From NCBI GenBank assembly GCA_025354645.1, contig JANXML010000158.1, positions 19,316 to 83,315 of the forward strand: 64,000 bases of DNA. Reading direction: 5' to 3'. The position numbers and the translations under genes were made by a program. This DNA comes from Arcicella sp. GTDB lineage: Bacteria; Bacteroidota; Bacteroidia; Cytophagales; Spirosomataceae. A model generated the notes under the pieces. The model was not told where the DNA came from. It searched no databases and saw only the letters and a program-made list of their open reading frames with translations. Below, piece after piece: positions 5,306 to 13,954 of the stretch (its first letter is position 1; each line of letters opens with the position of its first letter).

Positions 5306-6400
5306 ATGAGTCTCAAAGCTGTCTTTACAAAACATACACTGGATTTTAAATTCGAGGCAGGAACGTCTCGGGGCGTACTCACGCATAAAGATAGTTACTT
5401 TGTTAAGATTTTTGACCACGAAAACCCTTCTGTCTTTGGTTTAGGAGAATGTTCCCCTTTAAAAGGATTAAGTATTGACGATCGTCCTGATTTTGATTTG
5501 CAATTACTAAGTATTTGCGAAAATTTTAATACACTCGATTTAGAAGTTTATCCTTGGAATTTGAATATAATCCTTGACCAAGTACTTGACAAAACTTTCC
5601 CATCCATCGTTTTTGCCTTCGAAACTGCCATGCTTGATTTAATGAATGGGGGTAAAAGAGTCGTTTTCAACAATGCTTTTGCCAAAGCCGAACGAACAAT
5701 TAATATCAATGGTTTGGTGTGGATGGGTAATCGAGATTTTATGCTGAAACAAATTGATGAGAAATTAGAATCTGGATATGATACGATAAAAATGAAGGTT
5801 GGGGCAATAGATTTCAAAAAAGAATGTGAAATTTTAGCTTACATCCGTGACCGCTATGATGAAAGTAAAATTACGCTCAGAGTGGATGCCAATGGTGCAT
5901 TTTCAATTCATGAGGTCTTATCTAAACTTCAAAAATTAGCTGAATTCAAACTTCATTCTATCGAACAACCCATCAAACAAGGTAATGAAGATTTGATGGC
6001 AGAACTTTGTCAGAATACACCCGTACCAATTGCTTTGGATGAAGAATTGATTGGTGTTCGTGAATATACCGATAAATATAAATTATTGAAGAAAATCATG
6101 CCTCAATATATCATTTTGAAACCTACGCTTGTTGGTGGTTTTCAGCAATGTAGAGAATGGATTGAGAATGCTAACCGCTTGAAAATTGGTTGGTGGATGA
6201 CATCCGCTTTGGAATCGAACGTTGGATTAAATGCGATTACTCAATTTACTGCCGAATTTAATAATATCATGCCCCAAGGACTTGGAACTGGACAATTATA
6301 CCACAACAATATCCCATCTCCGCTTGAAATTAGAAATGGGAAAATCTTTCACAATGCTCAAAATCCTTGGAATTTAGGAGTTTTGGAATTTTTGGTTTGA
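5306..6400 (+). CDS. menC: o-succinylbenzoate synthase (enolase superfamily)
   Basis: FEAGTSRG, KMKVG, RVDANG, SIEQP, ALDEEL, ILKP, TSALESNVGL. Confidence 0.9.
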   Translation: MSLKAVFTKHTLDFKFEAGTSRGVLTHKDSYFVKIFDHENPSVFGLGECSPLKGLSIDDRPDFDLQLLSICENFNTLDLEVYPWNLNIILDQVLDKTFPSIVFAFETAMLDLMNGGKRVVFNNAFAKAERTININGLVWMGNRDFMLKQIDEKLESGYDTIKMKVGAIDFKKECEILAYIRDRYDESKITLRVDANGAFSIHEVLSKLQKLAEFKLHSIEQPIKQGNEDLMAELCQNTPVPIALDEELIGVREYTDKYKLLKKIMPQYIILKPTLVGGFQQCREWIENANRLKIGWWMTSALESNVGLNAITQFTAEFNNIMPQGLGTGQLYHNNIPSPLEIRNGKIFHNAQNPWNLGVLEFLV

Positions 6401-6569
6401 GTTTTTTTTGTTGTATCACAAGATTGCATGCCTTCTAATCTGAATCCAAATACGTGAATCAATTCTATATTACTTTAAAAATTCACAAAATAAAAACCCC
6501 TCAAATCTTTGTCTTTAAGTCAGTAGTTTGCAAATTTGCAAAAACAAACCATCGAAAAATCAAATTTCA

Positions 6570-6986
6570 ATGAATATTCAAGCACTTGACAAAGACCTTA
6601 TTTCTTTATTTGAAAAAAGAGTAGCATTAAGCCAAATGGGCTATGATCATCGTGATTATGATGATGTAGAAGAAGTACTACACGATTTAGAAGATGATTT
6701 CAATGAGAAATATGGCAGTTATTTAGAAGGCGTTCTTTCAGATATACATAAAGAATATTGTCCAGAATCTGACGTTTTATTACCAACTGCCTACTTGGCA
6801 AAATCTTTCAAAGAAACTGCCGACGGTGGAATTGAAGTAGGAAAAGATGCAGGAGTTTTAGTTGAATTGGAAGCCGACCCAGATGCAAAAGCAAAATTGA
6901 TTCTATTACCAACGCCAACTCGTATTGTTTTGCAGGTTGGGAAAAAGAAAAATATTGTTTGGGAAGCCGAAGAAATTGATTTTTAA
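6570..6986 (+). CDS. Acidic hypothetical protein
   Basis: Clean ORF with likely start at ATG 6570 (MNIQALDK); no recognisable family. Confidence 0.7.
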   Translation: MNIQALDKDLISLFEKRVALSQMGYDHRDYDDVEEVLHDLEDDFNEKYGSYLEGVLSDIHKEYCPESDVLLPTAYLAKSFKETADGGIEVGKDAGVLVELEADPDAKAKLILLPTPTRIVLQVGKKKNIVWEAEEIDF

Positions 6987-7158
6987 GAAGTTATCAAATA
7001 ATCAATTTTAAATGCCTCGAACAGACGAATTTTTTTTAAATTATTTGTTTGTTCGTGGCATTATTATATAAAAAAACTTCTGTCGAAATGATCAACAGAA
7101 GTCTGAAACATTAACCATTTTATTTATTATTGATTATTTCAAATGTGTAAATGATATT

Positions 7159-8748
7159 TTATTGAACACCATCGCTTTGCCCTCTAAGAATTGCTTTATC
7201 TCCCAGCATTTTTCCAATTTTCAAGCCTCCTTCGCAATCCATTTTGTAATGAATACCTCCGTATAATCTCGATTTAGAAGCCTCGTCAGCTTGTGCTTGA
7301 AAAGTAGTTGCACCATCTGGAAACAAATAACTTAGAACCGTTGAAGCAGCCGCTGAAAACGTTGAATGTCCCGAAGTATATGAGGGGAAATTTGGTAATC
7401 CTGTTAAGGTTTTAATGCTATTATCAATTTGTGAAGGGCGTGGACAATAATAGAAACTCTTTGTGTACCAACAACTTACGGAAGCATCCATCATGGCGGT
7501 ATTTAAAAGTGCTAAGTTACGAGCCATTCTGACCTCCGATTGTTTTGCCGCAACAATATACTTTTCTGCGATTTGATTCCAATGTCCAGGTGGTGTTTGA
7601 GTACCTGCACCATCAGCCCAATAATGTACAATAGCAATGCGTTCACGAGTTGGATTATCAGTGTAGCTTTTTACTTCCGCCACTTGAGCTTTAAACCCTT
7701 CAGAATTAGTTGAAAGTGGAGGAACGGACGTGCTTATATCAGTTAAATTCTTTTTATCCATATTCCACGTCATTACGTTTCCGAACAAAGCTAACATAGG
7801 AGGACGGGGAGATGTTTCCATTGATTTCCAAGCAATTTCTCCTCTTTCTTCACAACGTTTTGTAAGACTATCCCACTTGGATTGAGCACCAACAGCATTT
7901 GCCATTCCATCGGTTCTAAATCGAGCAAAAACCTTTGCAAAAACTGCTTTACCTAATTTTTCGCCTGCCTCAATATCAGAACGAGTTGAAACTCCAGCCC
8001 ATAATTTAAACCATTTTTGTTCTTCTTTCTTTTTATACAAAAATAAAGTATCGGCTGACTGTGGAAATAATCTTTTCAAGAACTCATAACTAACTGCCGC
8101 CATCACTGCGTCTTCGGAAGGAAAAGAATTTAGTTTCGGAGCCGCCAAAATTACAGGAACAATATTCACATCAACCGCATTTGGCGATTTACGAGCATAT
8201 TTTGCTTTTAATGCCATTGCGATAACGAGTGCATCGTACTGAGCCACAGACACGTATGAGTAAGCACGAGCCGCATAAGGAGGATTTGAAAAAGGGAAAG
8301 CCGTTCCAGTTCCATTCAAATTATTTGGGTCTGCTGAACTTGGAATCGGATAAAACCCTTGTTCATTCTCGGCGGGTGGCAAATTATTCTTCGCCACTAA
8401 TTCACGCATGATTTGATTCCAACGTAAAACACCGCCACCACTCCAATAACGAATAGCATCACGGCGAGCATCATCTATTTTACTAACTTCGGTTTTAACC
8501 TCTTCAATTTCTTGCTTGTATTTGTCCGAAGTTACTGCATCTGGTGTTGTCACAACGGATGCATAATCTGCAAGGGTTGTTGCTGTGTAAGTCTTCCAAC
8601 TTCCTGCGTTTGCGTCAAGGTTGGTTGGTGAAAGAGCTGGCAGTTCCGTTCCGTCACGATCAAGATATTTCTCACAAGAAGACATCACAGCTACTAAAAG
8701 CATTGCTGACAGCGTTAATTTTATATTTTCAGTAATTATCATTTTCAT
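7159..8748 (-). CDS. Vanadium-dependent haloperoxidase / PAP2-superfamily lipoprotein
   Basis: Lipobox VMSSC; C-terminal K-x6-RP (KSFYYCPRP), PSYTSGHS and SRLYGGIHY motifs. Start likely at 8748 or 8742. Confidence 0.85.
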   Translation of the reverse strand: MKMIITENIKLTLSAMLLVAVMSSCEKYLDRDGTELPALSPTNLDANAGSWKTYTATTLADYASVVTTPDAVTSDKYKQEIEEVKTEVSKIDDARRDAIRYWSGGGVLRWNQIMRELVAKNNLPPAENEQGFYPIPSSADPNNLNGTGTAFPFSNPPYAARAYSYVSVAQYDALVIAMALKAKYARKSPNAVDVNIVPVILAAPKLNSFPSEDAVMAAVSYEFLKRLFPQSADTLFLYKKKEEQKWFKLWAGVSTRSDIEAGEKLGKAVFAKVFARFRTDGMANAVGAQSKWDSLTKRCEERGEIAWKSMETSPRPPMLALFGNVMTWNMDKKNLTDISTSVPPLSTNSEGFKAQVAEVKSYTDNPTRERIAIVHYWADGAGTQTPPGHWNQIAEKYIVAAKQSEVRMARNLALLNTAMMDASVSCWYTKSFYYCPRPSQIDNSIKTLTGLPNFPSYTSGHSTFSAAASTVLSYLFPDGATTFQAQADEASKSRLYGGIHYKMDCEGGLKIGKMLGDKAILRGQSDGVQ

Positions 8749-8865
8749 TTTATCTTTTAAAAAATTTAGGATTTTAAATTTCAATTCAAAATCATTAAGT
8801 TTCGTAATTTATTTTATGCCTGAAATTTGGGCATTGAAAGTTGCAGATTTAAAATTTAACAATTT

Positions 8866-9864
8866 TTATTTATGCTCCTCTTTTTTCACTTCCATTCCCC
8901 CACTTTTATGATTCATATCTCCTGGACGGCAAATTGGACCGCTTGGTATTCCAGCCGTTTTATTCTTACGAAAATCGATATACTTTGAGATTCCGATTGA
9001 ATACGTTGTTGACTCTCCCACATTACGCCCCGACAAAATCTTTCCGCCTGTAACCATAATTTGCAAATCTTTCAAAACTGGAACACGGTAGGCAGCAATA
9101 AATCCGACTTTATTATAATCAAATTTATCACAAAGTCCAGGCATATCATTCCGACGAATATCAAGTGTTCCCTGAGTGATTTGTTGGTCATAAGTGGCTT
9201 CTAATTGCCATCTATATGAATAATGACCAAACTTTCCACCAAAGTTTACGATGTCTGGCATTATCATTTCGCTTGTGAAATAGCCTTTACCTGCATAATA
9301 CATTTCACGGTCGGCTTTCATATTTGAACGAGCCGTGTAGGTTCCATGAACGGTTAAAGCCAAATTTGCAGGTAAAGTATAATATAAAATTCCTCTCGCA
9401 AAACCCGTCTTAGATTGCATTCCAATCGCAAAAGGAAGATAATCAGCCACGTAGTTATTGGTTGGAATTGAACCACCAATTGAACCAATTACTGAAAGAT
9501 TGTGTGCCTGAATTAAACGATATTTAACTGACATCGTCAAATCTTGAACCCCACTCATTCCCTGAGAAGTACCAGCTGAGGCTTTCGTAGAGATGTATGG
9601 CAGTGAGAACATCAAATTGAATCGGTCAGAGATTCCGTAGTTTCCCATTAAAACTACTGATTGGATTGTGAGCGTTCCAAGATTTTTATTTTCTCTGTAT
9701 AATGCACCTTCCCAGTATTTATTCCAAGAATCATTCATGTAAGTGATTCCTCCACAAAGGTTACCTTTCGCCATAAAAATCCCATCATTCATCATTTGGG
9801 CATTAGCTAAAAAAGTGGTGAAAGTAAGAAGAGTCCAAAGACTAAATTTTGTAAATGTTTTCAT
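8866..9864 (-). CDS. Uncharacterised outer-membrane beta-barrel / transporter-like protein
   Basis: Signal peptide ending in ANAQ, amphipathic strands, YSIGISKYIDF followed by a Cys/Met/His-containing tail. Confidence 0.65.
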   Translation of the reverse strand: MKTFTKFSLWTLLTFTTFLANAQMMNDGIFMAKGNLCGGITYMNDSWNKYWEGALYRENKNLGTLTIQSVVLMGNYGISDRFNLMFSLPYISTKASAGTSQGMSGVQDLTMSVKYRLIQAHNLSVIGSIGGSIPTNNYVADYLPFAIGMQSKTGFARGILYYTLPANLALTVHGTYTARSNMKADREMYYAGKGYFTSEMIMPDIVNFGGKFGHYSYRWQLEATYDQQITQGTLDIRRNDMPGLCDKFDYNKVGFIAAYRVPVLKDLQIMVTGGKILSGRNVGESTTYSIGISKYIDFRKNKTAGIPSGPICRPGDMNHKSGGMEVKKEEHK

Positions 9865-9903
9865 GTTTATCTTAATAATGTATGTGATTCGATTTTAAAA
9901 AGA

Positions 9904-9938
9904 ACTCATAACTAACAATCAGTTACGAATAACTAATC
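9904..9938. repeat. Degenerate heptamer array
   Basis: ACTCATA ACTAACA ATCAGTT ACGAATA ACTAATC between the two barrel genes. Confidence 0.4.
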
Positions 9939-9939
9939 T

Positions 9940-11046
9940 CTAAAATCTATGTGAATAAGTTGCTGAAATAAAATAATCAGCAAATGCCGCATCGCCTTGT
10001 CCGCCATACTTCAAATCTGAGTAGGAACGAGTACGATTTCTTGATGTTGCAATCGGAACATTCAATGCAAAAGTGTTGTGTTTGTTCATGTATGAAACGC
10101 CTGGTTCAACAGAAATTATATAGCCTGGGCGACGAAAGCCTTCACTTTTACCCAAAATATCTTCCGAAGGAACACCCTCAATTCTACCACCAAAACTTAC
10201 TGCAATTCCAGCCTTTGGAATTAGAGCGTAAGCAATTCCTGCACGTGCAGCAAATTGGTCAGAAATTGAATGTTTAACAGTGATTGGGTTTTGAACATTA
10301 TCGCCCAAGATGTTATTAAAGGTGTTATTTGTGTTTTGAGGATTAAATAAATAAAAGGCATTGTAATAAAATGACGCCTTTGAAAGGATTCGTTGGTAAC
10401 CTTGAATTTCAACATTCACACCCCAACCGCCATCACCTAATTGAATTGATTGGTCAACGGCTTTGGTTTGTATAAATTCTACTCCTTCTTTTGATAATTT
10501 ATGGAAATCTCCTTGGACATTTGAATTACCAGTTGGTGCTTTCACACCCAAACCCAAAGAAACATTTCCATTCAAGTGTTTCATTGGCTCGAAAAGCCAA
10601 TAGTTTGCCCCAACACGAATATCACCCAAACCAGAAGATTTTGTTGAAAAATAGGGCGATGGAGCAGCCAATGTACCATTCCCATAATGTTCGTACTTGG
10701 AATCACGAACGTTCATCGCCAATGGAATATTTACAGAAACGCTTAAGCGGTCGGTAACGGAATAAGTTATTCCGATATCTAAACCTTGAGAATAGTTTTT
10801 CACTTCTGTATCATTAATTAAACGCTGTTCTTGATATTCAGTACCCACAAAATGACGATGAGAATAAAGACTACGAAAGCCCGAAGAAACTTGCCATTGA
10901 CCTGGACGCATCATTGAAGTTGCATTTGCACCAGTCCCAGCTGCACAACTCATATGACGAACCGCCACACAACCTTGTGCCAAAACATTTTGAGCTGCCA
11001 ATGATATTCCAAACATGACAACAATTAACTGTAAAGTTTTATACAT
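9940..11046 (-). CDS. Uncharacterised outer-membrane beta-barrel / transporter-like protein
   Basis: Signal peptide (VLAQ), GLGDIRVG and LGVKAPTG strand motifs, C-terminal YSHRF (BAM-type terminal Phe). Confidence 0.7.
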   Translation of the reverse strand: MYKTLQLIVVMFGISLAAQNVLAQGCVAVRHMSCAAGTGANATSMMRPGQWQVSSGFRSLYSHRHFVGTEYQEQRLINDTEVKNYSQGLDIGITYSVTDRLSVSVNIPLAMNVRDSKYEHYGNGTLAAPSPYFSTKSSGLGDIRVGANYWLFEPMKHLNGNVSLGLGVKAPTGNSNVQGDFHKLSKEGVEFIQTKAVDQSIQLGDGGWGVNVEIQGYQRILSKASFYYNAFYLFNPQNTNNTFNNILGDNVQNPITVKHSISDQFAARAGIAYALIPKAGIAVSFGGRIEGVPSEDILGKSEGFRRPGYIISVEPGVSYMNKHNTFALNVPIATSRNRTRSYSDLKYGGQGDAAFADYFISATYSHRF

Positions 11047-11101
11047 ATTGAATTGTGTTATTACTAATTAACAAGATTAAACTAATGCTTTGTCTAATTT
11101 T

Positions 11102-11206
11102 TTCCAGAAATCAGGAATTTTACTTATATTGCAGTACAAAGAAAATAAATTTTATAATAATTTCCAACTTTTTGGAAAAATAATACAAAATTCCTGTTTA
11201 ATGGAA
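11102..11206. promoter_or_regulatory. Three palindromic operator-like sites TTCC-N8-GGAA
   Basis: Sites at 11102-11117, 11162-11177 and 11191-11206; the last overlaps the XRE gene ATG at 11201. Confidence 0.7.
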
Positions 11207-11650
11207 AATAAGTTTGGAGCTAATCTTAAAATTTTAAGAAAAAAGAATAAATTGACTTTGGAAGTTTTAGGTGCGACTTTGGGAGTTAGTAAGAGTGCTT
11301 TATCTGATTATGAGAATGGACATACACTTCCGTCGTTGAACGTTTGTGAATCAATTAGTCAGTATTTTGGATCAAATTTGAACGATTTGCAAAATTTCGA
11401 TTTCTCGGAAATGAGTATTGAAGAAATAAAAGAAAGTGCGTCAAATAGATCTGTTGAAAGAAATAATGAGAACAAAAATGATTACAGTGATCCAATAAAG
11501 CAGTTAGAATTTCAAAATAAATTATTGCATCAACAAGTTCAAGGATTGGAAATTCAGTTACAATTAATAAAACAATTAACGGAGAGTAAGATTTCAGAAA
11601 TCAAGTCATTACAAATTCAGATTAGATTGTTAGAAGAGAAATTAAGTTAA
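11201..11650 (+). CDS. XRE/Cro-CI family HTH regulator with C-terminal coiled coil
   Basis: FGANLKILRKKNKLTLEVLGATLGVSKSALSDYENGHTLPS. Likely start at ATG 11201. Confidence 0.9.
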   Translation: MENKFGANLKILRKKNKLTLEVLGATLGVSKSALSDYENGHTLPSLNVCESISQYFGSNLNDLQNFDFSEMSIEEIKESASNRSVERNNENKNDYSDPIKQLEFQNKLLHQQVQGLEIQLQLIKQLTESKISEIKSLQIQIRLLEEKLS

Positions 11651-12055
11651 TTACAAAGTCGATGATTCATTCAAATTTTGCCCTTTCCTGTTTTCTTCAC
11701 TTGCTTTTCTAATATCGGCAACAAATTTTTGGGTATTTTCAAAGGGTTCGTCAGAGCCTGAAAGTTTCTTTACTAAATTCAATAAATACGTTTGAGTTTG
11801 TTGAATAACATCCAACGTAACCTGATTTTGAGCAATTTGCTTTTGATTTCGAACAATATTCATTTGATTATTAACGATAATTTCTTGGTTGCGAATAATA
11901 GTTGATTGATTCTGAATTACCATCTCGTGATTGTCAGCATTTTGTTGCTGATTTTTAATCATAATATCATAATTATCCACAATTCGTCCTTGAATACTTT
12001 TCAAAAAGTCTTGTTCATCCACTAATTTTTGTAATACTTCATCAAAATTTTTCAT
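11651..12055 (-). CDS. Coiled-coil hypothetical protein with (I/V)xxNQxx heptads
   Basis: Eight consecutive heptads with Asn at the fourth position, residues 25-80. Confidence 0.8.
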   Translation of the reverse strand: MKNFDEVLQKLVDEQDFLKSIQGRIVDNYDIMIKNQQQNADNHEMVIQNQSTIIRNQEIIVNNQMNIVRNQKQIAQNQVTLDVIQQTQTYLLNLVKKLSGSDEPFENTQKFVADIRKASEENRKGQNLNESSTL

Positions 12056-12132
12056 TGCCTAATTTTATAATCTGTTTTATTCTTAAATTTGTGATAGACC
12101 CTTACCAAGTAGTAAATTAACGCAAAAACTTT

Positions 12133-13116
12133 ATGCAATCCAATAAAATCCAGAAAACGAGAATTCCTTGGATATACTTAATTTTTCTAACGGTTGTATT
12201 GTGCGGATGGACTTGGTATATGTTTGAACACAATAGTTTTGAAATATATACTCGTCAATGGGCAACCGTAGTAACCATGATTTTTGGTTCATTTATCGCA
12301 GGAGCCAGCCCAGAAGGAAGTGCCGCCGTTGCTTATCCCATCTTTACATTAATACTTAAAATCGCCCCAGCCGTTGCTCGAAATTTTGCCTTCGCCATTC
12401 AAAGTATTGGGATGACCTCCGCCAGTTTATTAATCATCGGAATGGGTTTGAAAGTAGATTGGAATTATATTATTTTCGTCACAATTGGAGGTGTATTTGG
12501 CTTATTTTTAGGAACCTACTACGTTGTTCCATACATTTCTCCTGTACAAGCTAAGCTATTTTTTGTATCACTTTATCTAAGTTTTGGGATTGCTCTATGG
12601 CTACAAAATCGTCGTCCACAACGAGAAGTATTTGAAAAAATAGAAAGTTTCCAGAATTCTGATAAAGTACGATTGATTGCTTTCGGATTGGTTGGAGGGA
12701 TAATTTCGTCTATTTTTGGAACGGGAATCAATATTTTTACTTTCTGTTTAATGACGATTTACTACAGAGTTTCTGAGAAAGTTGCCACACCTTCGTCCGT
12801 AATTATCATGACGGCTGAGACAATTTTAGGACTATTTATTCATACACAATTAAAGAAAGACTTTCAACCCGAGGCTTTTGAGATTTGGTTAGCTTGCGTA
12901 CCTTTTGTGGCTGTGTTTGCTCCGTTGGGAGCTTTTGTAATTAGCAAAATGGCTCGAAAAGGAATTGCAACGATACTCTATTTCATTTTAATTATTCAAT
13001 TTTTTGGGGCTATGATTGTTATTAAACCTACTTTATTTCAATTTTCATTGTGTATGTTAGTTTTAGCTTCAGGAATTGGATTGTTTAGTTATTTGGCAAA
13101 AGTTCGGAAAGTATAA
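12133..13116 (+). CDS. TauE/SafE (sulfite exporter) family membrane protein
   Basis: About 9 TM segments; GSFIAGASPEGSAAVAYP, GGIISSIFGTG, APLGA. Confidence 0.8.
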   Translation: MQSNKIQKTRIPWIYLIFLTVVLCGWTWYMFEHNSFEIYTRQWATVVTMIFGSFIAGASPEGSAAVAYPIFTLILKIAPAVARNFAFAIQSIGMTSASLLIIGMGLKVDWNYIIFVTIGGVFGLFLGTYYVVPYISPVQAKLFFVSLYLSFGIALWLQNRRPQREVFEKIESFQNSDKVRLIAFGLVGGIISSIFGTGINIFTFCLMTIYYRVSEKVATPSSVIIMTAETILGLFIHTQLKKDFQPEAFEIWLACVPFVAVFAPLGAFVISKMARKGIATILYFILIIQFFGAMIVIKPTLFQFSLCMLVLASGIGLFSYLAKVRKV

Positions 13117-13123
13117 TTTCGCT

Positions 13124-13897
13124 TTACAGATACCACCACGATTGCAAATCTTCCCAATTCAAGTTTAAATAAACATTCAACTGAACTAAATTTAGATTAC
13201 GTAACTCCAATTTTCTATTCCTTATTAAGGTTTGGTAACAATAGCCTAATTCAACTCTTGCCTTACCCAAATTATATCCTCCTGCGAGATGCAACCAGTT
13301 TTCAGAGCAATTAGATGTTTCAAAAACGCCATTTTTTGAACTTACTGGACCATTAGTTGCACCTTCCAAATACCAAAATGCTTCATTAGAAGCGGATAAA
13401 TAAAAGCCTTTTTTTGTCTCTTTGGGATTAAAAAGTTGGAGCGTAACAAAGGTTTGATACCTCAAAATGGAAGCATCATCGAGTACGTTTGTTTTCGTGT
13501 TCAAAGGCATTCTGTACTCGTAACGAAAACGATGGTTTACAACAAATTTTCCAATAGTATGCAGATAAGCAACTTGTCCCAAAAACCGATTTTCTGTTTG
13601 CTTTAAGCCAAAGATATTATGACTTCCATATCCGTAGCCCAATCCAGCGTTCAAGTGTTTATTGAATTTTTGAATTAACATCAATTGAGCGACTAAATGA
13701 GCCTGTGTACCGATAAACTCCTTATTATCAACGTTTTCAGTTAATAATGAAACGGATGAGACACTCAAATTATACCCAAGATTTTTATAAATACTTCCCG
13801 TTTGGTAGTAGTTTGGATTAAAACCTTCGAGATTTAGATTTTGAGCAATTGATTGAAATGAGGTAAGAAAAATTATTCCACATAAGAGTATCTTCAT
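13124..13897 (-). CDS. DUF2490-like outer-membrane beta-barrel
   Basis: Signal peptide from M at 13897; ENRFLGQ, NHRFRYEYR, SASNEAF motifs. Confidence 0.65.
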   Translation of the reverse strand: MKILLCGIIFLTSFQSIAQNLNLEGFNPNYYQTGSIYKNLGYNLSVSSVSLLTENVDNKEFIGTQAHLVAQLMLIQKFNKHLNAGLGYGYGSHNIFGLKQTENRFLGQVAYLHTIGKFVVNHRFRYEYRMPLNTKTNVLDDASILRYQTFVTLQLFNPKETKKGFYLSASNEAFWYLEGATNGPVSSKNGVFETSNCSENWLHLAGGYNLGKARVELGYCYQTLIRNRKLELRNLNLVQLNVYLNLNWEDLQSWWYL

Positions 13898-13923
13898 AAA
13901 AGTTATTGAAATAAAGTGGTAAC

Positions 13924-13954
13924 AAAAAAAGATAGCCAATTGCTTGACTATCTT
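13924..13954 (-). terminator. Intrinsic terminator after hemF
   Basis: Stem AAGATAGCCAA/TTGACTATCTT followed by a U-tract on the minus strand. Confidence 0.6.

Follow-up and report, generated by a model that had tools for sequence, protein, structure and literature searches.

Locus organization

The DNA analysed here, hereafter the window, is a stretch of 64 kb from the genome of a freshwater Arcicella, and all coordinates given are positions in it. The locus under study holds two genes for outer-membrane barrel proteins (barrel 1 and barrel 2) and one for a PAP2-type lipoprotein, the putative enzyme of the system, accompanied by a gene for an XRE-family regulator. A preliminary description of this DNA had placed four open reading frames (ORFs) there, three of them co-directional on the minus strand and divergent from the XRE gene, and the ORF listing agrees with this arrangement. 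The features are the following:

7074-7104, minus strand: terminator-like hairpin of 13 pairs with a T run, 55 nucleotides (nt) past the lipoprotein stop codon
7159-8748 (listed as 7159-8784), minus strand: PAP2-type lipoprotein, corrected to the start shared with its homologues (M13, base 8748)
8866-9864, minus strand: barrel 2 (ORF listing)
9940-11046, minus strand: barrel 1 (ORF listing)
11102-11117, 11162-11177 and 11191-11206, strand not assigned: three putative palindromic TTCC-N8-GGAA operators (motif scan)
11201-11650 (probable start; listed as 11090-11650), plus strand: XRE-family regulator with HTH_3 and a C-terminal coiled-coil, divergent from the operon

Two of the listed starts were revised. 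The lipoprotein is listed from a TTG, and its homologues all start at its Met13, which yields a protein of 529 amino acids (aa). The TTG listed for the regulator is probably an over-extension as well, and its true start the ATG at 11201, because the alignment with more distant homologues begins only at about Met38. The spacer between barrel 1 and barrel 2 measures 75 nt, that between barrel 2 and the lipoprotein 117 nt from the shared start (81 nt if the listed TTG is used), and the divergent intergenic region 154 nt when the regulator starts at 11201.

Co-inheritance of barrel 2 and the lipoprotein

Conservation of the locus was followed in 80 loci retrieved by a family-alignment scan with one genome per species, which covered Cytophagales, Saprospirales, Sphingobacteriales, Chitinophagales and Flavobacteriales, and in a second sample of 300 Bacteroidota genomes drawn evenly. 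An orthologue of barrel 2 lies directly upstream of the enzyme and on the same strand in 76 of the 80 loci, the remaining four being interrupted by contig ends. Among the 300 genomes, orthologues of barrel 2 and of the enzyme occur in the identical 18 (15 of 144 genera), and they are neighbours in all 18. Even distant relatives of barrel 2, with 36-38% identity, are still paired with the enzyme, and the sole unpaired enzyme copy found is a paralogue on contig C231 of the Arcicella genome. The conserved unit is therefore barrel 2 plus the lipoprotein, 1:1, adjacent and in fixed order. From this strict co-inheritance and adjacency we infer that barrel 2 and the enzyme very likely constitute a functional module of the cell envelope.

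The preliminary description had inferred a self-contained system and named, as a check, the co-occurrence of the three minus-strand genes across Bacteroidota. Co-occurrence held for barrel 2 and the enzyme, which are strictly paired, and failed for barrel 1, which is present in only 29 of the 80 loci. The self-contained module of three genes had to be abandoned: barrel 1 is facultative, the XRE gene belongs to one clade, and a further small anchored partner is found in 55 of the 80 loci. What the window contains is a version of a Bacteroidota-wide barrel 2/enzyme module that is specific to its lineage and putatively XRE-regulated, and other Arcicella species possess a second version of the pair, about 50% identical and without the XRE gene. 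A full-text search of the literature gave no description of the barrel-enzyme pair or of the trio. The component families are known; what is new is the strict partnership between barrel and enzyme, together with its local XRE-linked variant.

Fold and active site of the lipoprotein

The lipoprotein has the lipobox VMSSC and, as previously claimed, complete phosphate/vanadate-binding motifs (K442-x6-R449-P450, S471-G472-H473 and S505-R506-x5-H512-x3-D516), which are invariant in 13 family members. It matches Pfam PAP2 with an E-value of 2.8e-12, and its homologues carry PF22778 (VCPO_2nd) in addition to PF01569, whereas in the lipoprotein itself PF22778 remains under detection by hmmscan. Its AlphaFold2 (AF2) model (predicted local distance difference test, pLDDT, 89.3) was used for a Foldseek search, in which the best 17 matches all belong to the vanadium-dependent haloperoxidase (VHPO) family, the first being Zg-VIPO1 (4USZ, E-value 2e-13). 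The top structural matches are Zg-VIPO1, XhnO11, NapH3, CiVCPO and NapH1, and the model aligns with 4USZ, 9L8X, 8CXL, 1VNC and 3W36 over 430-600 columns. At full length it matches only two-bundle VHPOs; class A acid phosphatases cover about 185 columns, that is, the C-terminal bundle alone. At the sequence level, the family profile covers both bundles of Zg-VIPO1 (E-value 2e-28), and class A acid phosphatases provide the second-best matches. The signature of the latter (KX6RP, PSGH and SRX5HX3D) is present in full, but the lipoprotein, with 529 aa and two bundles, departs from the single-bundle phosphatase of about 230 aa.

The residues invariant in the enzyme family are D391, W439, K442, R449, F466, S471, G472, H473, R506 and H512. 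All seven vanadate ligands are included (K442, R449, S471-G472-H473, R506 and H512), but they are common to acid phosphatases too and do not separate a VHPO from a phosphatase. In the alignment with CiVCPO, which is weak by itself (short, E-value 0.8) and reaches 9e-6 when the family profile is used, D391, W439 and K442 correspond to D292, W350 and K353. In the alignment with Zg-VIPO1, W439 corresponds to W321 and F466 to F353, and this Phe353 is the counterpart of F397 of CiVCPO, a suspected halide acceptor (PMC10427571). Acid phosphatases in the same alignments lack equivalents of the Trp and the Phe. Judged by sequence and predicted structure, both the fold and the active site of the lipoprotein are of the haloperoxidase type, and the invariance of D391, W439 and F466 favours real haloperoxidase-type chemistry, although it is not proof of it.

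Zg-VIPO1 (PDB 4CIT and 4USZ) of Zobellia galactanivorans is described as a vanadium-dependent iodoperoxidase (Fournier et al. 2014, cited in PMC5064120). It comes from the same phylum, is the best match in both sequence and fold, and has two bundles, identical vanadate ligands, a Cys-Trp before the Lys and a Phe before the Ser-Gly-His. However, it shares only 20-23% identity with the window enzyme. The latter is longer at its N-terminus by about 100 residues, which include an invariant helix (RWNQIMRELVAK) and a Pro-rich loop. It also has Cys438 and Cys517 as an invariant pair, retains the aspartate of HxxxD, which is missing in Zg-VIPO1, and always has a dedicated barrel alongside. The Arcicella genome encodes seven further VHPO-like PAP2 paralogues (contigs C231, C232, C213, C216, C177, C238 and C60), and the one at C231:5896-7428, 42% identical to the window enzyme, is without a barrel partner.

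Past the lipid Cys, the family follows the consensus C-[SN]-K-[DE]-[ILV]-[DE]-[DE]. Of 63 sequences, 45 have Lys at +3 and 41 have two or more acidic residues within +2 to +7; the window protein reads CEKYLDRD. Published export signals of Bacteroidota surface lipoproteins consist of K-(D/E)2 or Q-A-(D/E)2 just past the lipid Cys (PMC5080379).

Barrel 2, a divergent member of a channel family

Both barrels had initially been regarded as being of an unknown type, a view that is refuted by their relatives. Many homologues of barrel 1 and of barrel 2 carry PF13557. The AF2 model of barrel 2 (pLDDT 78.4) has 12 strands, and a Foldseek search with it returned the COG4313 channel Pput2725 first (4RL8, E-value 3e-11, template modelling score 0.77) and then FapF. 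Barrel 1 resembles FapF by sequence, with an E-value of 1.6e-5 against the PDB entry 5O65 and of 2e-12 against the NCBIfam model NF058560, where its 46.6 bits fall below the cut-off of 700. Neither window barrel matches any Pfam family itself at E-values up to 10. Both are divergent COG4313/PF13557 members, as indicated by the predicted structure in the case of barrel 2 and by the FapF matches in that of barrel 1. They also have signal-peptidase-I sites leaving an N-terminal Gln, which is usual in Bacteroidetes and known as the Q-rule (PMC5837995). Barrel 2 is single-copy in the Arcicella genome despite the eight VHPO-like paralogues encoded there, and neither tblastn nor family hidden Markov models detected paralogous barrels elsewhere in that genome.

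Residue conservation in barrel 2 was assessed in an alignment of 75 orthologues. Cys37 is invariant in all 75 and four Met positions are kept in at least 82%. The predicted extracellular loops are the most conserved part of the protein, with a mean column identity of 0.71 versus 0.56 in the strands and 0.41 in the periplasmic turns, the opposite of the usual pattern of outer-membrane proteins. The preliminary description had also pointed to a tail beyond the apparent terminal strand (YIDF) with Cys, Met and His residues. The tail exists (residues 299-332), and a polar tail follows the terminal strand in every orthologue, with a median of 11 residues and 29% Lys; its motif GPICRPGDxNH, on the other hand, is found in only 13 of the 75 orthologues, and this 34-residue form is confined to the Arcicella/Flectobacillus/Pseudarcicella clade. 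In 12 of these 13 members, the tail residues Cys312 and His319 are found together with Cys245 of loop 5, itself specific to the clade, a hint of a disulfide bond or of some local site.

The COG4313 channels include Pput2725 (4RL8), TcpY, involved in trichlorophenol uptake, and SphA, involved in sphingosine uptake; their cargo is hydrophobic, and their N-terminal segment occludes the lumen (PMC4493636). Barrel 2 is likewise 12-stranded and of similar size, and the segment that precedes its first strand is probably placed in the lumen. It differs from these channels in its low identity (16-18%), in the lack of a direct Pfam match, which applies to both window barrels, in the high conservation of its extracellular loops, in the C-terminal tail after the last strand and in its obligatory enzyme-lipoprotein partner. 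FapF, the channel that secretes amyloid subunits in Pseudomonas (PDB 5O65; PMC5557850), belongs to the same barrel family. Yet zero fap genes lie near the barrels of the window, the score of barrel 1 is far from that required of FapF, and the QGCVA N-terminus of barrel 1 contrasts with the coiled-coil and plug helix of FapF.

Barrel 1 and the conservation of Cys, His and Met residues

The mature N-terminus of barrel 1 had been described as rich in Cys, His and Met. The segment in question, QGCVAVRHMSC, is present in the window protein, but in an alignment of 30 family members only Q24-G25-C26-V27-A28 is invariant (30/30); a second Cys is frequent, His31 is found in 8 and Met32 in 17 of the 30. 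The QGCVA segment is more likely to be a structural element of an N-terminal plug than a metal site. The idea of metal sites in the two barrels was dropped since, across the 30 and 75 sequences aligned, only Cys26 of barrel 1 and Cys37 of barrel 2 are invariant, and the His, Met and tail residues are clade-specific. The possibility that barrel 1 is itself a lipoprotein (AQGC) was also rejected, as a Gln at -2 is unfit for a lipobox and cleavage before Gln suits signal peptidase I and the Q-rule (PMC5837995).

Barrel 1 lies on either side of the pair where it is present, is missing from three closely related Arcicella loci (L012, L013 and L018), and occurs elsewhere without any enzyme, alongside the small anchor protein only. 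Its distribution and sequence define it as a facultative add-on channel, assigned to a sister subfamily.

Regulator, operators and the small anchored protein

The regulator matches Pfam HTH_3 with an E-value of 2.4e-13. The palindrome TTCC-N8-GGAA has three matches in the window, and all three fall inside the divergent intergenic region; the last (11191-11206) overlaps the start codon of the XRE gene, and the two outer sites together make up an inverted repeat of 22 nt. Two or three copies occupy the same spot in every XRE-bearing locus (L012-L016, L018 and L023), with or without barrel 1. An HTH_3 domain and repeated palindromes in the own promoter region are what is expected of an XRE/Cro-type regulator. 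Control of the operon by the XRE protein, as proposed in the preliminary description, is thus plausible in view of the clustering and conservation of these candidate operators in XRE-bearing relatives, with the restriction that the synteny of the XRE gene with the operon is limited to the Arcicella clade. As for other signals, the hairpin at 7074-7104 is the sole strong terminator-like site of the operon, with no comparable hairpin in either internal spacer. Matches to sigma-70-type promoters are no commoner than in shuffled sequence, the Bacteroidota -7 motif TAnnTTTG occurs at chance frequency with none within the spacers, and an Rfam scan of 6400-12400 gave zero RNA families. Most of the spacer between barrel 2 and the lipoprotein is taken up by a 22-nt AT-rich inverted repeat, whose arms (8758-8779 and 8847-8868) are 77% complementary and separated by 67 nt.

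Convergent with the XRE gene lies a gene for a repetitive 134-aa protein rich in Gln, Asn and Ile (11651-12055, minus strand; IxNQ-type repeats), which is without a family match, is 87-90% conserved in the Arcicella clade and always adjoins the XRE gene. A TauE/SafE-type anion exporter (12133-13116, plus strand) and a DUF2490 protein (13124-13939, minus strand) are syntenic with the XRE module in the Arcicella clade only.

In 55 of the 80 loci the operon is headed by a small protein of about 185 aa from an undescribed family, with an N-terminal membrane helix that bears a conserved N..GY motif and with a C-terminal PP motif, for which searches of Pfam and NCBIfam gave zero matches. This protein is absent from the locus in the Arcicella clade, where the divergent XRE gene takes its place. 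Members of its family precede barrel 1 alone (L098) and, at C28:3136-3705 (minus strand) of the Arcicella genome, a TonB-dependent receptor. Because of these two settings, the small anchor protein seems to accompany outer-membrane transporters rather than the enzyme, and it looks like a general partner of such transporters.

Possible function of the barrel-enzyme module

The reading that we tentatively put forward, at a little under even chances, is that of a haloperoxidase-type enzyme exposed at the surface and docked on a channel of its own, through which its substrate or product would pass. The lipoprotein would be flipped to the cell surface by the export-like residues past its lipid Cys and would rest on the predicted extracellular loops of barrel 2, which are unusually conserved. 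In that position it would use H2O2 and a halide, or perform a related peroxo-vanadate reaction, on a small and probably hydrophobic molecule, and this molecule, or the oxidised halogen itself, would then cross barrel 2. In the Arcicella clade, the XRE protein would repress both the operon and its own gene through the three TTCC-N8-GGAA operators. A surface complex is suggested by the export-like residues past the lipid Cys and by the fact that the loops are the most conserved part of barrel 2.

Several considerations weigh against this proposal. Non-halogenating VHPO homologues such as NapH3 exist, and the hosts are inhabitants of fresh water and soil, habitats poor in halides and vanadate. 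The resemblance to the Bacteroidota surface-export signal past the lipid Cys is only loose, the loop topology of barrel 2 is taken from an AF2 model of moderate confidence, and the activity of the enzyme, its surface location and its complex with barrel 2 are all deduced from sequence and models. Moreover, the PAP2 phosphatase motifs are equally complete, the final Asp516 included, apo-VHPOs dephosphorylate substrates according to the title of PDB entry 3BB0, and about 12 loci lie inside alpha-glucoside sugar islands with GH65 and trehalase genes, a setting that suits a phosphatase at least as well.

These last points are shared by an explanation that we consider rather unlikely, in which the lipoprotein would be a phosphomonoesterase of the PAP2 type at the outer membrane, with sugar phosphates, lipid phosphates or other organophosphates as its substrates, and barrel 2 would import the dephosphorylated, possibly hydrophobic product or the phosphate set free. 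It would agree with the Pfam PAP2 match and the full acid phosphatase signature, with class A acid phosphatases being the second-best sequence matches, with the dephosphorylation by apo-chloroperoxidase named in the 3BB0 title, with the GH65 kojibiose hydrolase directly upstream in 12 loci, and with the import of the lipid sphingosine by the COG4313 channel SphA (PMC4493636). It is at odds with a fold that is that of a two-bundle VHPO and not of a single-bundle enzyme, and with the invariance of the equivalents of Asp292, Trp350 and Phe397, which a phosphatase does not need. To our knowledge there is no dedicated phosphatase of two-bundle VHPO architecture, which also counts against it. It is quite improbable that barrel 2 instead serves as a FapF-like export or anchoring barrel that translocates the lipoprotein or keeps it in place at the surface, with no small molecule involved. 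The FapF-family fold, the conserved extracellular loops and the strict 1:1 pairing with only one of the eight VHPO-like paralogues of the genome would be in line with such a role; but Bacteroidota have a general export pathway for surface lipoproteins (PMC5080379), no barrel accompanies the other VHPO-like lipoproteins, the same-enzyme paralogue on C231 is unpaired, and the presence of the small anchor protein with barrels and with a TonB-dependent receptor in the absence of the enzyme points to small-molecule transport.

The preliminary description had favoured the import of a metal, an oxyanion or a substrate. That the barrels import vanadate or another metal or oxyanion through Cys/His/Met sites, for an enzyme facing the periplasm, now appears very improbable. 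Cys37 and the four Met positions of barrel 2, Cys26 of barrel 1 and a siderophore-type TonB receptor that follows the pair in about 10 loci could be read in its favour. Nevertheless, the His and Met of barrel 1 and the whole tail motif of barrel 2 are not conserved beyond one clade, a cofactor needed in catalytic amounts poorly explains a strict 1:1 barrel, and the structurally characterised COG4313 channel was judged unlikely to pass hydrophilic solutes (PMC4493636). No specific pointer to such import was found, and the COG4313 channels characterised so far take hydrophobic molecules (PMC4493636).

A more explicit form of the haloperoxidase reading, unlikely as a whole, pictures an enzyme-capped passive channel. 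Barrel 2 and the VHPO-fold lipoprotein would form a physical surface complex, a 12-stranded and TonB-independent counterpart of SusCD, in which a halide (e.g. iodide) would be oxidised or a hydrophobic substrate halogenated at the pore mouth and the product taken in, with the small anchored protein as a periplasmic hand-off or coupling factor. If true, this would be the molecular basis for the H2O2-dependent halogen uptake of Flavobacteriaceae. Such iodine uptake was described in Arenibacter sp. C-21 (summarised in PMC5064120 after Amachi et al. 2007), a member of this family whose genome has five Zg-VIPO-like PAP2 genes. The model presented there, of a membrane-bound haloperoxidase that oxidises the halide outside the cell for its entry, is similar; the organism is marine, however, and that work neither assigned a gene nor proposed a channel. 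The SusCD systems of Bacteroidota, composed of a TonB-dependent transporter and a surface lipoprotein (10.1101/2022.08.15.503959; 10.64898/2026.09.03.749221), also combine a barrel with a lipoprotein, here probably surface-exposed, encoded by adjacent and co-inherited genes. The window barrel, in contrast, is 12-stranded and lacks both a TonB box and a plug domain, its lipoprotein is an enzyme and not a binding lid, and the complex of the two is putative.

Should the enzyme sit on the barrel, it would represent a new outer-membrane uptake arrangement of Bacteroidota beside the SusCD type, with a bearing on freshwater iodine or bromine cycling; should it be a phosphatase, the pair would be a new route of organophosphate scavenging. 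Bacterial VHPOs are known mainly as soluble enzymes of marine bacteria and of natural-product pathways, although many copies are also present in the genomes of ordinary Bacteroidota from soil and fresh water, eight in this Arcicella. A strictly co-inherited channel gives the enzyme subfamily a testable physiological context. Conversely, nearly all COG4313 barrels are without a known substrate, and an enzyme partner offers a functional handle on the family.

Neighbouring genes in other genomes

Apart from the partners described above, other conserved neighbours were discarded as clues to function, as they mostly reflect lineage-specific synteny (ATP synthase, biotin genes, sugar islands). In Chitinophagales, the alpha-glucoside gene islands place a GH65 kojibiose hydrolase directly upstream in 12 loci, with a trehalase nearby. 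The trio lies between genes for a phytoene-desaturase-like flavin adenine dinucleotide (FAD) oxidase and a phytoene/squalene synthase in L092 and L093 (and L029), which is probably also lineage-specific synteny. The siderophore-type TonB receptor mentioned above stands after the pair.

In 11 Flavobacterium loci (L028, L053, L058, L060, L066, L069, L071, L073, L085, L087 and L089), the gene directly downstream of that for the enzyme, in the same orientation, codes for a 155-aa DUF417/DoxX membrane protein; this protein resembles RclC, a protein of reactive-chlorine resistance, with a score below the NCBIfam cut-off. In further Arcicella species and in Terrimonas (L099, G010:C1:733000-745000; L100; L072), the pair has as neighbours two or three AhpD-like CMD genes, a major facilitator superfamily (MFS) transporter and a DUF3179 membrane protein. 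The second Arcicella version of the pair, without the XRE gene, adjoins DUF3179, two AhpD-like CMD genes and an MFS transporter, and DUF3179 recurs in L043, L044 and L055. The sporadic RclC-like and AhpD-like neighbours lend weak support to a peroxide or halogen chemistry of the module. A shorter second VHPO-like lipoprotein of 441-465 aa is often encoded between the anchor gene and the barrels (L026, L032, L033, L036, L040, L044, L047, L062, L068, L072, L078, L080, L090 and others).

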